NCBI GenBank assembly: GCA_048939465.1 | Contig: JBHLPL010000036.1 | Location: forward strand, 1 to 17,104 | Direction of reading: 5' to 3' | DNA from: Promethearchaeota archaeon | GTDB taxonomy: Archaea; Asgardarchaeota; Odinarchaeia; Odinarchaeales; JBHLKK01 | Length of the DNA: 17,104 nucleotides | Part shown: piece by piece, positions 2,698-10,084 of the stretch | Position numbering within the stretch: the first letter of the stretch is position 1 | How the letters are laid out: each line of letters opens with the position of its first letter | Program-made: the position numbers and the translations under genes | Notes under the pieces: model-generated | Databases searched by the model: none | The model's input: the letters and a program-made list of their open reading frames with translations, nothing else | What the model was told of the DNA's origin: nothing

Positions 2698-4278
2698 TTA
2701 TACTTCGACCGAAGGAGAAGGCAGTCTCTTATTCTCGTTATGCGATAGATTCAGAACTTTAACTATCAAATCTGATCTAACCTTTGACAATCCCTCATAA
2801 CGACCTTCATAGGCTGCTTTCTCGGCTCCAAGATCATAACAAGTTATCCCTTCTGTCGTTATGAGCAACCCCGGAACGCCAATCCTATCGAAGTCTTCAG
2901 CATGCTTCTCATAGAATTGTGTACAGCAACTCCCTACCCAAGCCAATTCTCCCATTTTCTTGAGTTTATTCAGCGTCTTCTCCAAATGCTCATAGCTTAC
3001 TATAGTCACAGGTCTGAAGCCGAGTTTCTCTGCATTCTCATAGATGGGTGTGAACTCACACAGACCACATTTAGTGCACTTCGGGTCATATCTTAAGTCA
3101 CATTCCAGGGGTTTGGCGCAATATGGCAGCAGCAAATACCTCGCAGTTTCCAGCACATATTCTGCAGGGGCCAAGACTTCTATAAGTTGATCTGCTTCAT
3201 CGGCTGATAATTCCAAGTCAAGTAACCGAACTTTTGACGCTGCTTCCATTATCGCCCTCGTTATATCTTTAACCGCCACTCCTGGTATATCCGCGTTAAG
3301 TGTATCAAATGCATTTTTCACGGCCTTATGGACATCTCGCTTTTCGATGGGCAATTGTTTGACTCTGCTTTCGATTTCATAAACAAGATTTTGTGGAAAA
3401 GCAAAGAAATCTCCAGTCAGATAAGTGGCATTAATTACGTTCTCATAGACGTTGACAGCAGCTCTGACAAGCCCTCCCGGCGCCTTTACGCTTGCGTGGA
3501 AAAAACCCCTCCTGGGAACTTTAACAAGATGTATCCACTCCTTTGAAGAAAAATGAGGTAGATTCGCTTCCAGGAGTTGAGTTTCATACGGTCTAAGACC
3601 TTCTGCTTTGAGAGAGATGCTGAAATAATCGCTGAATTCATCTGCAAAAGCATCCTTAATGATCTCAATATCCGGCAGATATCCTTTCTCTGATTTTACA
3701 GTGGTGATTCGCTCCTTCAGGGACCGAATCTCTTTATCCTGCAGTTTCTTGATGGGTATCCTCAAACATCTAAGCATCTCGGGGACGTCAAGATCCGTTA
3801 ATAGTGTTCCTTGAAACAAAAATGCGCCACCGAGTCTAGTTCCGCCGGTTCCGGAGATCTTACGACCACCAATCTCAATGTCATTTTTTGATCTGAACCT
3901 TGCCTTTAGGCCAAGTCTCTTAAGAGCTCTTACAGCGCCCTCACATATTGAAGCTGTGAGTTTTTCCATGCTCCCTGGAAATCTTTGATCCCATTTTGAG
4001 ATGATTTCCCACCCAAGATGAATCGGGGCGAAGTATATTGCACCTCCTCCTGTTAAACGGCGATTAATATCAACCCCGTTTTGCACACAGTAGTCTACTC
4101 GAACTTCTTGATCGATATCCTGGTGATAGCCTACTAGCACGCAGGGTTTTGAAAAACGTAGAAACCTAATAGTATTAGGTGCTCGTTCTTCAGAAACTGA
4201 AGTCAGGAGTACTTGGTCTAAAGCCATATTCTCAGCAGCACTTCTCAAACCCGTATCAATTAGTCTCCACTCTTCCAT
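2698..4278 (-). CDS. lplA: Lipoate-protein ligase (catalytic + C-terminal domains) fused to a Cys-rich DUF116-like domain
   Basis: LplA motifs: WRLIDTG..AAENMALD, RRLTGGGAIY, KNDI, RKISG (catalytic Lys), QGTLL. These are followed by a ligase C-terminal domain (KAPGGLVR...ITGDFF-like) and an extra ~140-aa tail with 8 Cys (PYCAKPLEC, CTKCGLC, GSCC, TCYD). Confidence 0.9.
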   Translation of the reverse strand: MEEWRLIDTGLRSAAENMALDQVLLTSVSEERAPNTIRFLRFSKPCVLVGYHQDIDQEVRVDYCVQNGVDINRRLTGGGAIYFAPIHLGWEIISKWDQRFPGSMEKLTASICEGAVRALKRLGLKARFRSKNDIEIGGRKISGTGGTRLGGAFLFQGTLLTDLDVPEMLRCLRIPIKKLQDKEIRSLKERITTVKSEKGYLPDIEIIKDAFADEFSDYFSISLKAEGLRPYETQLLEANLPHFSSKEWIHLVKVPRRGFFHASVKAPGGLVRAAVNVYENVINATYLTGDFFAFPQNLVYEIESRVKQLPIEKRDVHKAVKNAFDTLNADIPGVAVKDITRAIMEAASKVRLLDLELSADEADQLIEVLAPAEYVLETARYLLLPYCAKPLECDLRYDPKCTKCGLCEFTPIYENAEKLGFRPVTIVSYEHLEKTLNKLKKMGELAWVGSCCTQFYEKHAEDFDRIGVPGLLITTEGITCYDLGAEKAAYEGRYEGLSKVRSDLIVKVLNLSHNENKRLPSPSVEV

Positions 4279-7143: not shown

Positions 7144-7284
7144 ATGGATAAGGATAAGAAGATCAAAATGAATTGCAATACAGACTGTCCTTATTTACGT
7201 CGATTATGTGTTTCTCTCCCGACAGCTGCCGAGACATGCTGCGGAGCAGAAGACGAGGCTCCCACATTCAAGGAAGACGACTAA
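7144..7284 (+). CDS. Small Cys-rich protein (46 aa)
   Basis: MDKDKKIKMNCNTDCPYLRRLCVSLPTAAETCCGAEDEAPTFKEDD*, with five Cys and its own BRE/TATA. It is below the track's cut-off. Confidence 0.55.
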   Translation: MDKDKKIKMNCNTDCPYLRRLCVSLPTAAETCCGAEDEAPTFKEDD

Positions 7285-7294
7285 TGTTCTAAGG
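7284..7294. repeat. Half site (ATGTTCTAAGG) of the palindromic motif
   Basis: 11-bp exact match to the reverse complement of the left arm of the 6315-6336 palindrome. It starts at the stop codon of the 46-aa ORF. Confidence 0.6.
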
Positions 7295-7338
7295 GATCGC
7301 GGGGTCCCCAGTATCTTATGGTCGTGAAATGCGTTCAG

Positions 7339-7419
7339 TTAGGTCTCTTCCAGAGCTATACCCAAATGAAGCAGAAGAATACCGATTATCGCAGCAACGA
7401 CGACATATGATCCAATCAT
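7339..7419 (-). CDS. 26-aa hydrophobic peptide coupled to the NuoI-B-D fusion (membrane anchor or NuoH remnant)
   Basis: The ATG overlaps the fusion's TGA (ATGA, 7419-7416). Translation: MIGSYVVVAAIIGILLLHLGIALEET*. Confidence 0.45.
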   Translation of the reverse strand: MIGSYVVVAAIIGILLLHLGIALEET

Positions 7420-9404
7420 CGGTCATGATCTGCCGGACAGTTATCCAAACTCCAGTAAATTACTGGAATGTCTGCCACGTATTTACCCCCCAGAACCTTC
7501 GGCATGGCAACAAGTATGCTGTCAAAAGTCGGGCCTCTGATTTTTACCCTATAGGGAGTTTTGTCTCCATTGCTTACTATGTGAAAGCATAGCTCCCCCC
7601 TTGCACTCTCAACACAATGAATTGCTTCCCCCTTAGGAAGGCGGGAAAACGGTGTGAACTTTTTGCCATTCCCCATTGTGCTTTCGGCTATTTCACCCTT
7701 TGGCATCTTTTCAAGAGCATTGTCAATTATCCTGAGACTTTCTTCCATTTCTTTTCGCCTACACAATGCCCTAGAATATGCGTCTCCCTTATCCAAACTT
7801 GCAACATCAAAATCCAGTTCGGTGAAGGCTTCGTAGGGCATGGTTTTCCTTATATCAAATTCAAAGGCCGAGGCCCTCGCATTTGGACCAGTTACATCTA
7901 GGTCTATGGCCATATCCCTGGGCAACTTCCCTATTTCCTTTGTCCTAGTTTTGAATGTTGGGTTATTAAAGCACAAATCATCGAAAAACTTGAGTTGTTT
8001 CTCCATATACTTCTTTACTTCCCCAAACTTCTCTTCGAAATCTGGGGGCATATCGCTCCTCACACCGCCCGGTATATTATAAATATGATATATTCTACTC
8101 TTAGTTAGTTTTTCCAATAGTAAGAGAATTTTCTCCCTTTCACCCCAAGTGATTTTTGTTACGGTGTCAAAACCTGCTGCCGAAGCTATCAGACCCAAGT
8201 TCAGTAAGTGGCTTTGTATTCTGCTCAGTTCACCGTGAACCACCCTAAGATACTTCGCTCTCCGTGGTACTTCAATCCCAGCCAGCTTGTCTAAAGCGCC
8301 TATGTAGGCTAATTCGTAACTTGCACCATCGAGCACGCATACACGTTGGACGAGCATAATATTTTGCCACCAAGTCCGGTACTCCATAAGTTTTTCAAAC
8401 CCTCTGTGGAGATAGCCCGGATTCGGTCTTACGCTCTTGATGGTTTCCCCGTCAAGCTTAAAATATACATTGAAGTTGCCTGAAGCTGGATGTTGAGATC
8501 CAAAGGGTATTGAGTACTCTCCTGGCTCTCTAGTTTCCCCTTGATATGGCGGAAGATCAAGAAAACCTTTTTCCTTATTTACCTTCTCTTCTTTGCCCAT
8601 ATATCCACCTTGAATAGCGTGGATAGCCATTAAGATTGCTAATCCTATCGGTTCTGGTCTGGGCGGACAGCCGGCTATCATTATGTCTACAGGTATGTAT
8701 CTTTCAAGGTCCTTTATGGTGTTATAGCTATCCCAGTAGGTTCCTCCATTGATCGGACAGCAACCCAGCGTCATTACGTATTTGGGACGGGGCATCTGTT
8801 GATAGATACGGATTATCCTTCTAAGGGTTTTTACTGTTACATAGCCGCCTATAAGCAACACATCGGAGTGTCTAGGTGAACCTTTGGCTAGCAGTCCAAA
8901 CCTTTCCATATCAAAACCACTGCTTACCCAAGGGACGGCTTCTATGAAGCAACAGCCAGTGAAGTAATTGTTGATCCATAAGCTACGTGAGATAGCCCAG
9001 TTCTTGATTCCCTTAATCTTAGGAGGTACTGGATGTTCAAGCTTTGGAGGCTCTGAAAGCTTTTCTGGCGGATAAACTAGCTCGTCCTTATTGTGAACGA
9101 CTAGAAACGGAAAATTCGAGAATGTGAGTGCCCCGCGGGAGCATATGTCAACACATAACCCGCAAAAGCAGCATTTACTGTAATCTATTTGGGGGTATAG
9201 TTTCTTCTCTCCGTTCTTTTTCCTTTCAACCATCTCGATGGCCAAGTTTGGACAAATCCTCTCGCAGAGCTTGCAGCCTATACACTCTTCCATGTCAAGA
9301 ATATGTCTCCCCCTGAAGCCTTCCGAAAGAGGCGTCTCAGGTGGGAAATTGAAGGTTATGGGCTTGTCCTTCAGCATTTTAAATTCTGCTTTGAAGAGGC
9401 TCAT
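7416..9404 (-). CDS. Triple fusion NuoI/MbxN + NuoB/MbxJ + NuoD/MbxL (complex I / sulfane reductase-like catalytic headpiece)
   Basis: N-terminal region: two ferredoxin-type motifs, CIGCKLCERICP and CCFCGLCVDIC. Middle: NuoB motifs TGCCFIE, FDMERFG, GCCPINGG, AGCPPRPE. C-terminal region: NuoD motifs GSQHP, GYLHRGFEKL, ELSRIQSHL, ESARGE, ending DNCPADHDR*. One uninterrupted 662-aa frame with GGTGA upstream. Confidence 0.92.
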   Translation of the reverse strand: MSLFKAEFKMLKDKPITFNFPPETPLSEGFRGRHILDMEECIGCKLCERICPNLAIEMVERKKNGEKKLYPQIDYSKCCFCGLCVDICSRGALTFSNFPFLVVHNKDELVYPPEKLSEPPKLEHPVPPKIKGIKNWAISRSLWINNYFTGCCFIEAVPWVSSGFDMERFGLLAKGSPRHSDVLLIGGYVTVKTLRRIIRIYQQMPRPKYVMTLGCCPINGGTYWDSYNTIKDLERYIPVDIMIAGCPPRPEPIGLAILMAIHAIQGGYMGKEEKVNKEKGFLDLPPYQGETREPGEYSIPFGSQHPASGNFNVYFKLDGETIKSVRPNPGYLHRGFEKLMEYRTWWQNIMLVQRVCVLDGASYELAYIGALDKLAGIEVPRRAKYLRVVHGELSRIQSHLLNLGLIASAAGFDTVTKITWGEREKILLLLEKLTKSRIYHIYNIPGGVRSDMPPDFEEKFGEVKKYMEKQLKFFDDLCFNNPTFKTRTKEIGKLPRDMAIDLDVTGPNARASAFEFDIRKTMPYEAFTELDFDVASLDKGDAYSRALCRRKEMEESLRIIDNALEKMPKGEIAESTMGNGKKFTPFSRLPKGEAIHCVESARGELCFHIVSNGDKTPYRVKIRGPTFDSILVAMPKVLGGKYVADIPVIYWSLDNCPADHDR

Positions 9405-9416
9405 AACTCATTTCAC

Positions 9417-9890
9417 CTACGGAGCACTTTCATAAGTCTCCTTCACGTATTTCTTCCAATCAAACTCCTTTCTAAAAGGTGGTGGACCGTCCCACTTCTC
9501 AAGAAACAGTGGTTTTAACATGGCATTTCCATCAAAAGTAATTCCAAACAGTTCCCAGATTTCCCGTTCATGCATGGCGCTGTTTTCCCACAGCGAAGAT
9601 AAGCTTCGAATCCTGGTTTCATCTCTTGGTATTCTTGCAGCAACTTTGGCGTACAAATTCTTCGTAGGATTGTGAACTATATAATATATCTCAAATTCCT
9701 TTTCCTCCAGCCAGTCAACGGCTGAAACTGTTAGAAGCCTTCTAAAGCCCTTGTTCTTTAAAAATTCTGCAACTCCGCTATAATTGACCTTAGATACCCT
9801 GATAAATAGGAATCTGCCCTTGATCTCGCATTCAGCATTAAAATGCGTTTCTAACTCTTTAGAGATTTCATGAGAAATGAAATCTTTCGT
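9417..9890 (-). CDS. nuoC: NuoC/MbxK-like subunit (start codon uncertain)
   Basis: The frame is open from 9893 to the TAG at 9417: PTKDFISHEISKELETHF...GFRRLLTVSAVDWLEEKEFEIYYIVH...SLWENSAMHEREIWELFGITFDGN..LKPLFL. These are classic NuoC motifs. The track shows only the last 79 aa because no in-frame ATG/GTG/TTG occurs earlier; ACG at 9890 follows a G6A tract. Confidence 0.85.
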   Translation of the reverse strand, partial: TKDFISHEISKELETHFNAECEIKGRFLFIRVSKVNYSGVAEFLKNKGFRRLLTVSAVDWLEEKEFEIYYIVHNPTKNLYAKVAARIPRDETRIRSLSSLWENSAMHEREIWELFGITFDGNAMLKPLFLEKWDGPPPFRKEFDWKKYVKETYESAP

Positions 9891-9933
9891 GGGCTATCCC
9901 CCCTGGCTAAGCTTTACCACAGAGATAGTTCTG

Positions 9934-9950
9934 AGTATTTAAGTTTTGCT
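9934..9950 (-). promoter_or_regulatory. BRE + TATA box of the nuoC / nuoI-B-D operon
   Basis: AGCAAAACTTAAATACT on the minus strand. The 12-mer AACTTAAATACT recurs exactly at 13480-13491. Confidence 0.55.
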
Positions 9951-10084
9951 AGTAGAGATTTTTCTGCCCTTATGTTAATGTAAGAAGCTATCGGCTGATC
10001 TCTCCCAGTAGGAGTTAGTACAAGCTTTGAGACAATAAAGTTAAAAATGAAAAGGCATGAGTATCTTCAGAAGGAGGGAAAAGA

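Follow-up and report, generated by a model that had tools for sequence, protein, structure and literature searches.

The question raised by this locus is how the head of a complex I-type enzyme can occur with no membrane arm beside it. The window analysed here, 17,104 nucleotides, is positions 1 to 17,104 of contig JBHLPL010000036.1 in a metagenome-assembled genome (MAG) of the Odinarchaeales (GCA_048939465.1). On its minus strand lie a nuoC-like gene and a second gene in which the NuoI, NuoB and NuoD subunits are fused. Judged by their domains, the two genes would encode the complete peripheral head of a complex I-type enzyme or of one like the membrane-bound reductase of sulfane sulfur (MBS), with three of the four subunits in one chain. 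Neither NuoH nor an antiporter-like subunit, as the initial annotation had stated, nor a Mrp subunit is encoded by the other 15 open reading frames (ORFs) of the window. It is somewhat probable that this is a ferredoxin-fed, MBS-like head which docks in trans on a resident NuoH arm.

Architecture and type of the head

The fusion gene (7416-9404, minus strand) is one uninterrupted frame of 662 amino acids (aa), containing NuoI, NuoB and NuoD domains in that order. Pfam finds two Fer4 motifs at residues 35-92, Oxidored_q6 (NuoB) at 165-257 and Complex1_49kDa (NuoD) at 411-662, besides an N-terminal match to NiFeSe_Hases at 334-401. NCBIfam places NuoI at 7-116, NuoB at 130-264 and NuoD at 298-662. 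The upstream frame (9417-9893 from stop to stop, minus strand) matches Pfam Complex1_30kDa at 3e-26 and ends twelve bases before the fusion gene. It aligns end to end with the NuoC proteins of 154-185 aa that precede fusion homologues. The I-B-D order, the preceding nuoC and the two Pro/Lys/Glu-rich linkers described in the initial annotation are all borne out, the linkers at the positions it had given (Table 1). The first linker is partly conserved (e.g., P113, L116 and P120), and the second contains zero conserved columns. In an AlphaFold2 model based on an alignment of 60 sequences, the three domains are packed as one body, with a predicted local distance difference test score (pLDDT) of 86 and a predicted TM score of 0.91. 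Linker 1 is ordered in the model (pLDDT 83-94). The model is uncertain at linker 2 (pLDDT 53-62) and at the beta1-beta2 loop (303-307).

The closest solved relatives of all three domains are subunits of the Pyrococcus furiosus MBS (6U8Y), in agreement with the MBS-like character first proposed. The D domain scores 283 bits against MbsL (6u8y_L), 237 against Thermus thermophilus Nqo4 and 191 against MbhL, and in Foldseek its fold is closest to 6u8y_L (TMt 0.91, root-mean-square deviation 2.3). The best solved relatives of the B and I domains are MbsJ (6u8y_J, 155.6 bits) and MbsN (6u8y_N, 80.5 bits).

The eight cysteines of the I domain (C41, C44, C47, C51, C78, C81, C84 and C88) are invariant in 60 sequences. 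C151, C216 and C246 of the B domain are also invariant. C152 is Cys in 54 of 70 family members and Gly in the other 16, and those 16 copies thus have an MBS-like three-Cys cluster. In the D domain, the first Cys of each NiFe motif is retained and the second is replaced by Asp (RVC356VLD359G and SLDNC656PAD659H660DR). C356, D359, C656, D659 and H660 are retained in 69-70 of 70 family members. Protein P0020 is the sole member without C356 (Asn) and it is also without C656 (Ala), so both cysteines have been lost together. The quinone ligands of Nqo4, His38 and Tyr87, are missing; in the alignment to 2fug_4 their positions fall on G309/N310 and V357. The four-Cys motifs of group 4 [NiFe] hydrogenases (L1, RxCGxCxxxH; L2, DPCxxCxxH/R) are not present either. 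The fusion reads RVCVLDGASY and DNCPADHDR at these sites, and it was therefore rejected as a [NiFe] hydrogenase.

Of the four NiFe cysteines, the large subunit of MBS has kept the same two, and the others are each replaced by an acidic residue (RICVPE/DNCPPDIDR in MBS, RVCVLD/DNCPADHDR in the fusion). C85 and C385 of MbsL align with C356 and C656, and D359 and D659 stand at the other two positions. MBS also lacks the His and Tyr of Nqo4, its small subunit has the signature PINGG.YWD.YN in common with the fusion, and a ferredoxin-type input through its 2x[4Fe-4S] subunit is predicted for the fusion as well. In contrast to MBS, the fusion contains N, J and L as one polypeptide, in the order N-J-L, with K separate. 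In MbsJ, the CxxC loop is shortened and just three cysteines, C28, C93 and C123, ligate the proximal [4Fe-4S] cluster (PMC7684303). The B domain of the fusion has the tandem TGC151C152FIE instead, with no equivalent of MbsJ C25. The D domains are ~39% identical. Besides, the operon of MBS encodes 13 subunits, among them an Mrp-type Na+/H+ module and the NuoH-type anchor MbsM; no arm is in cis in the window, although two relatives described below have one.

The Q-module of complex I and of the 11-subunit Nuo- and Fpo-like enzymes (Nqo4/5/6/9 in T. thermophilus) consists of the same four subunits with the same fold. The tandem-Cys motif of its cluster N2 is shared with the window copy (C151-C152) and with the Cys-Cys members of the family. 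The fusion differs from it in lacking the quinone-binding His and Tyr and in retaining two hydrogenase cysteines. Known fusions of complex I subunits are C-D, B-C-D and B-D, not I-B-D. The NuoA/H/J/K/L/M/N arm genes, absent from the window, are found in this genome only with another head.

The third comparison is with Hfo, the Fpo-like 11-subunit [NiFe] hydrogenase of Bathyarchaeia (group 4g; PMC7886697), and with the complex I-like group 4 hydrogenases of Asgard archaea (PMC11291895). They occur in the same phyla as the fusion and share the arm type with some of its relatives, and Hfo-type complexes are the resident arms in this genome. In their heads the L1 and L2 motifs are intact, and B, C, D and I are encoded in cis by separate genes; neither holds for the fused head. 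Based on these comparisons, it is not MBS proper, because of its tandem-Cys N2 site, its fused subunits and the missing Mrp arm here; not complex I, because it lacks quinone ligands and retains two cysteines; and not a group 4 hydrogenase, because it lacks the NiFe motifs. The combination of an MbsL-type two-Cys D domain with a complex I-type tandem-Cys B domain makes it a hybrid of MBS-like and complex I-like features, and by its ligands it is neither a hydrogenase nor a quinone reductase.

Distribution and genomic settings of the fusion family

In a search of 5.8 billion proteins, ~70 protein clusters match the fusion over 100% of the query at 55-75% identity, and each contains all three Pfam domains. 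They come from NCBI, ENA, JGI and Logan assemblies, with contigs up to 964 kb, and their database name is just 'NuoD'. When one genome per species was scanned, 42 species genomes carried the fusion. In the window's phylum there are 24 full-length copies in 23 of 400 genomes (13 of 85 genera). On the Thermoproteota side, the MAGs are labelled Bathyarchaeia, Hecatellales and Desulfurococcales. Among Asgard archaea, the labels are Baldr-, Njord-, Odin-, Hermod-, Borr-, Jord-, Heimdall- and Promethearchaeota, and the remaining ones are Thermoplasmata and Anaerolineae/Chloroflexota. nuoC immediately precedes the fusion in every locus with a readable upstream side. One copy in a Jordarchaeum-labelled MAG (G118:C205:682-2655; 61% identity) is full length except for one in-frame TAA, which could be a sequencing error, a pseudogene or recoding.

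The initial annotation, which did not recognise an I-B-D fusion, allowed that the architecture might already be common or that the genes might belong to a documented split operon. The architecture is indeed common in metagenomes. No description of the I-B-D fusion or of the orphan heads of its clade was found in the searchable literature (subscription journals were outside the scope). Neither the fusion nor such an orphan head is mentioned in PMC7684303, PMC8165549, PMC7886697, PMC11291895, PMC9723677, PMC7117926 or bioRxiv 2024.07.04.601786. Since every NuoH in the complete genomes already has its own head, the pair is not simply half of a split operon.

When the protein library is clustered at 50% identity, the whole family falls into one representative (916 bits). 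The next matches, at 326 bits, are B-C-D, B-D or C-D fusions or plain NuoD. The representative search also returned P0225 (937 aa), a NuoD homologue split by an intein with a LAGLIDADG endonuclease domain. The family signature is a NuoI-NuoB-NuoD chain with CVLDG ... YWSLD[NQ]CPADHDR, and the window copy fits it. Based on the phylogeny, the fusions form one clade with 99% support. Its sister clade comprises 46 unfused two-Cys NuoD sequences, mostly from Bathyarchaeia, with the signature R[IV]C[IV]LD ... SLDPCPAD[MV]DR in common. Full membrane operons as well as orphan B-C-D-I or B-CD-I clusters are included in this sister clade.

In relatives, the fused head is the last part of NuoH-arm operons of two kinds. 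The first is of the complex I/Hfo type. In family f22 of the Promethearchaeia, the operon nuoA-H-J-K-L-N-C-IBD is found in three genomes of 97-98% completeness (G182, G192 and G267), and in it nuoN, nuoC and the fusion gene overlap by 4 nt each. The fusion is the sole NuoD of these genomes, and the operon NuoH is their sole NuoH. A fourth (G147) carries the same operon, cut by the contig end within the I domain. NuoH is found in just four of the 135 genomes of this family, and all four are these carriers of the fusion operon. In a further Promethearchaeota MAG (fusion protein P0061), an antiporter-C-IBD run adjoins an A-type ATPase operon. The NuoH of the Promethearchaeia arm is 42-53% identical to those of three NiFe complexes (in G286, G290 and G292). 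The arm order in G286 is B-C-D-I-A-H-J-K-L-N, and its D subunit retains the NiFe L2 motif; in G292, an A-H-(J)-K-L-N arm is divergent to nuoB-nuoC. Given this resemblance of NuoH, the Promethearchaeia operon looks like a NiFe complex of this type in which the head has been replaced.

The second kind is of the Mrp/MBH type (MBH, membrane-bound hydrogenase). Two thermophile MAGs (G405 and G406) encode MrpF-MrpG-MbhD-MnhB-NuoK-MnhE-MrpD-(115 aa)-NuoH-NuoC-IBD on one strand, and the fusion thus follows an Mrp-type arm as in mbs. These operons (G405:C7, locus L152, 6083-18214; G406:C9, locus L153) lie back to back with a divergent NiFe head. This head is B-C-D-polyferredoxin-HycI with the motifs RICGIC and DPCFAC, and it has no NuoH of its own. 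G405 contains four NuoD-type heads versus three NuoH, and two of the heads flank the single Mrp-NuoH arm. The fusion tree has two major clades, and arm-linked copies are present in each.

In all other contexts with at least 8 kb of flank, including the window, Hecatellales-like Bathyarchaeia and Anaerolineae, no arm is near the pair. In two families, the genes FlpD(MvhD)-FdhA-FdhB adjoin the pair. They are upstream in G307 (L044, 10268-16536) and G308 (L049), and downstream in G116 (L043, 5130-11358). Such FlpD/MvhD, molybdopterin FdhA-like and FrhB/FdhB-like neighbours suggest a formate-fed version of the head. A search of the present genome found an orthologue of neither FdhA nor FdhB, just MvhD-like genes in an Hdr cluster on contig C56, and so the Fdh link is lineage-specific. 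In two Anaerolineae MAGs, a CbiA/CooC-like ATPase and CooT, which are carbon monoxide dehydrogenase nickel chaperones, come after the pair (L073, 7434-8458; L074, 6716-7719). The Anaerolineae copies also sit amid Zip, DtxR-like and FeoAB metal-homeostasis genes. Such neighbours may hint that the Cys2Asp2His site holds a metal, or they may be there by coincidence.

Proposed docking in trans and its alternatives

The MAG containing the window is 91% complete in 152 contigs. The initial annotation supposed that the arm could be encoded elsewhere in the genome. Arm genes of the complex I type are indeed found, over at least three loci: A-B-CD-H-I on C109, J-K-N on C49 and L-M on C10. This scatter makes gene adjacency a weak guide in this genome. 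Both NuoH found are on C109, and each lies beside its own NuoB, NuoI and C-D fusion. The C-D fusions have intact NiFe motifs (ERTCGIC/DPCFSC and ERVCGIC/DPCIAC). C109 carries a second, small group-4 NiFe hydrogenase cluster adjoining the first. No second set of arm genes was found in this genome. A similar separation is known from the '2M' complex I of Chloroflexi, in which nuoBCDI is encoded apart from the arm (PMC7117926). The arm of that complex has no other head, whereas every NuoH found here has a head in cis; the fused head is thus supernumerary.

In two genomes of the same genus (G298 and G299), the flanks are collinear with the window at 70-78% nucleotide identity, and ~225 bp replace positions ~7285-10000. 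The replaced segment is exactly nuoC, the fusion gene and the upstream region. The fusion was not found elsewhere in these genomes (78% and 82% complete) at E<=1e-100. The window copy groups with Hecatellales/Bathyarchaeia copies (76% identity, 100/100 support) and not with the other Asgard copies, which are 58-71% identical to it. The GC content of the cassette does not differ from that of its flanks. The absence from two congeners and the nearest relatives in Hecatellales/Bathyarchaeia are most simply explained by a recent horizontal gain of the cassette without an arm of its own.

By homology to MBS, MBH, photosynthetic NDH-1 and Fpo-like complexes, the entry point for reduced ferredoxin would be the pair of [4Fe-4S] clusters in the I domain. 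In some lineages, a formate dehydrogenase/MvhD module might be the electron source. Electrons would then pass to the proximal cluster of the B domain and on to a pocket at the B/D interface, predicted to have neither a NiFe site nor the quinone His/Tyr. Sulfane sulfur or polysulfide is the best guess for the acceptor, by analogy with MBS. In this genome, docking would be on the Hfo-type arm set spread over C109, C49 and C10. This set has a NiFe head of its own, and the fused one might thus be an alternative head that changes what the pump reduces.

Docking is supported by the arm operons of relatives and by co-occurrence: NuoH is present in 41 of the 42 fusion-bearing species genomes, and the exception is a 0.6-Mb MAG. 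When residues 130-662 were folded with the 357-aa NuoH of this genome, the predicted complex scored 0.80, and the best control scored 0.00. The mark for this score is reached by 58 of 80 solved complexes and by two of 110 mismatched pairs. Contact agreement among the runs with NuoH is at least 96%, and the pLDDT of the partner is at least 81. Because complex I, MBH and MBS are already solved, this pass shows likeness rather than binding by this copy.

The conservation of the predicted interface also points to docking. At the 57 predicted NuoH-contact residues, the frequency of the top residue is 0.75, against 0.74 for the whole protein including its core. This was calculated for the 62 sequences outside the Promethearchaeia arm-linked clade, and most of the checked contexts among them stand alone. 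The invariant predicted contacts include W136, S141, D165, E167, R168, G170, D181, H305, E320, G411, N481 and R487. Such conservation is higher than we would expect for a free surface. The beta1-beta2 loop FGPQHPASGNF and the active-site motifs are alike in arm-linked and stand-alone copies. The 38 clade-specific positions that separate arm-linked from stand-alone copies are mostly in linker 2 and show no hydrophobic-to-polar pattern, and thus speak for neither reading.

Several points weigh against docking. Every NuoH found in this genome, in G307 (100% complete, eight contigs, three NuoH) and in G116 (one NuoH) has its own NuoD next to it. To dock, the fused head would thus have to compete with one encoded in cis, and we know of no precedent for a head that does this. 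Outside the Promethearchaeia, nearly all genomes of fusion-bearing families have NuoH, so that co-occurrence has little weight there and the test has power just in family f22. The pair travels alone, and most of the checked contexts (more than 12, with at least 8 kb of flank) are without an arm. It adjoins the soluble FlpD-FdhA-FdhB in G116 and G307/G308. The orphan B-C-D-I and B-CD-I clusters of the sister clade, on contigs of 60-200 kb, also have no arm genes nearby. The cytoplasmic subcomplex of MBS was purified from the soluble fraction, and it is active in vitro, reducing dimethyltrisulfide (PMC7684303). Finally, the nuoC gene of the window has no canonical start codon, and the MAG is incomplete.

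Many of these points favour the main alternative, in which NuoC and the fusion form a soluble enzyme. It would be a cytoplasmic reductase of a soluble acceptor, for instance polysulfide or a disulfide, dependent on ferredoxin or on formate/MvhD, with no membrane partner and no ion pumping, and the fusion would stabilise the unanchored module. The two-gene cassette moves and persists by itself, no unpaired NuoH was found in G307, G116 or this genome, and the FlpD-FdhA-FdhB genes adjoin the pair in two gene orders. The orphan clusters and the soluble MBS subcomplex count on the same side. The fusion protein is also without a hydrophobic segment (maximum 19-residue Kyte-Doolittle mean, 1.32). Nevertheless, two lineages have copies with 59-66% identity and unchanged invariant residues in one operon with an arm. 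The stand-alone copies are not separated from the arm-linked ones by any clade-specific loss of a hydrophobic patch, and they highly conserve the predicted NuoH contacts and the FGPQHPASGNF loop. Moreover, no good-quality genome was found with the fusion but without NuoH. A soluble enzyme is rather unlikely. The initial annotation offered both a soluble oxidoreductase and an exchangeable docking head. Both remain, and docking is now the better supported by the cis operons, the near-universal NuoH and the conserved contacts.

Docking in trans could also be extended from this genome to the whole family. It can be tentatively speculated, at short of even chances, that the pair is a portable, arm-agnostic cassette which spreads among archaeal phyla and into Chloroflexota. 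It would dock in trans on any resident NuoH pump, whether of the Hfo/complex I or the Mrp/MBH type, and compete with the NiFe head. If so, one membrane arm would serve two heads, and the terminal reaction could be switched from proton reduction to another acceptor. Such an arrangement would be realised in cis in G405 and G406, whose locus has a single Mrp-NuoH arm between the fused head and a NiFe head accompanied by its HycI protease.

A further alternative concerns this genome only: the cassette might have been imported recently and have gone out of use, or never have come into use, with the start of nuoC lost and the pair decaying. The nuoC frame opens with CCC ACG AAA GAT, and homologues have Met exactly at the ACG (9890-9888). 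No ATG, GTG or TTG is present until codon 80, the first canonical start being TTG at 9656. The sole ATG in the vicinity (9871) lies in another frame, which stops after six codons. The cassette is absent from two congeners, and its source looks foreign, Hecatellales-like. Both frames are, however, open throughout, no residue is missing from the 8+3 cluster cysteines or from the C/D/C/D/H signature, and the GC content is the same as that of the flanks. A Shine-Dalgarno-like run, GGGGGG, ends 7 nt upstream of the ACG, at the right spacing. The ACG may reflect weak initiation at a non-canonical codon, an error of the MAG consensus in a single base (ATG to ACG) or a lost start codon, and since it is one base from ATG, either of the first two may explain it. 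Decay of the pair is accordingly improbable. That the fusion is an assembly or frameshift artefact joining three separate genes can be discarded: the window comes from a 152-contig MAG and no point in favour of an artefact was found, while the same uninterrupted architecture recurs in the ~70 clusters whose sequences were assembled independently, on contigs as long as 964 kb, and in the 24 full-length copies of the phylum.

Complex I is thought to derive from a soluble hydrogenase-like module and an Mrp-type antiporter, with MBH and MBS as living intermediates. The fusion family bears on this modular evolution. It could be a widespread intermediate new to the searchable literature, with an MBS-like two-Cys large subunit, a complex I-like tandem-Cys N2 site and three subunits in one chain. 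It occurs in three settings, with complex I-type arms, with Mrp-type arms and as a lone mobile two-gene cassette, and is therefore a natural system for asking whether heads and arms are interchangeable. Its acquisition without a membrane part raises the idea that such heads plug into resident ion pumps. Metabolic reconstructions of Asgard archaea and Bathyarchaeia are affected as well, as the fusion is annotated 'NuoD' and counted as complex I. A single 75-kDa chain plus NuoC might also be a convenient minimal head for biochemistry.

Feature coordinates and other genes of the window

The features of the cassette are listed in Table 1. The initial annotation placed the cassette under its own promoter, and this rests solely on a TATA-like TTAAATA, read by eye.

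Table 1. Positions of the cassette and its parts in the 17,104-nt window
Feature	Position	Strand	Basis
Extent of the nuoC + I-B-D cassette (~2.7 kb)	7285-10000		Presence/absence polymorphism versus congeners
NuoD/MbsL-like domain, residues 298-662 + stop codon	7416-8513	-	Pfam Complex1_49kDa, 2.5e-70; motifs RVC356VLD359G and SLDNC656PAD659H660DR
Linker 2 (B to D), residues 269-297, Lys/Glu/Pro-rich, variable	8514-8600	-	
NuoB/MbsJ-like domain, residues 130-268	8601-9017	-	Pfam Oxidored_q6; 6u8y_J, 155.6 bits; predicted proximal [4Fe-4S] ligation
Linker 1 (I to B), residues ~100-130, Pro/Lys/Glu-rich	9015-9107	-	
NuoI/MbsN-like domain, residues 1-125	9030-9404	-	Two CxxCxxCxxxCP motifs; Pfam Fer4 and NCBIfam NuoI; best solved match 6u8y_N
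nuoC-like gene, about 157 aa	9417-9890	-	Likely first codon ACG 9890-9888; stop TAG 9419-9417
Putative archaeal promoter and ribosome-binding region	9898-9942	-	TTAAATA 9942-9936 and GGGGGG 9903-9898; consensus-level reading of the sequence

The other ORFs of the window encode an EamA transporter, a metallophosphoesterase, a lipoate ligase-DUF116 fusion, a flavoprotein, two radical-SAM proteins, DUF362 and DUF3795 proteins, an SDR protein, a HAD hydrolase, an aminotransferase and small membrane proteins without a family. The scans of the window for tRNAs and against Rfam gave no matches. The lipoate ligase-DUF116 fusion (2698-4278, minus strand) is a protein of 526 aa, in which the LplA-B catalytic and C-terminal domains of a lipoate-protein ligase are joined to DUF116. 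The end of a Cys-rich ORF of 38 aa without family assignment (7168-7284, plus strand), MNCNTDCPYLRRLCVSLPTAAETCCGAEDEAPTFKEDD, coincides exactly with the left boundary of the inserted cassette. Its protein sequence is conserved in the two genomes of the same genus, which show synonymous changes.

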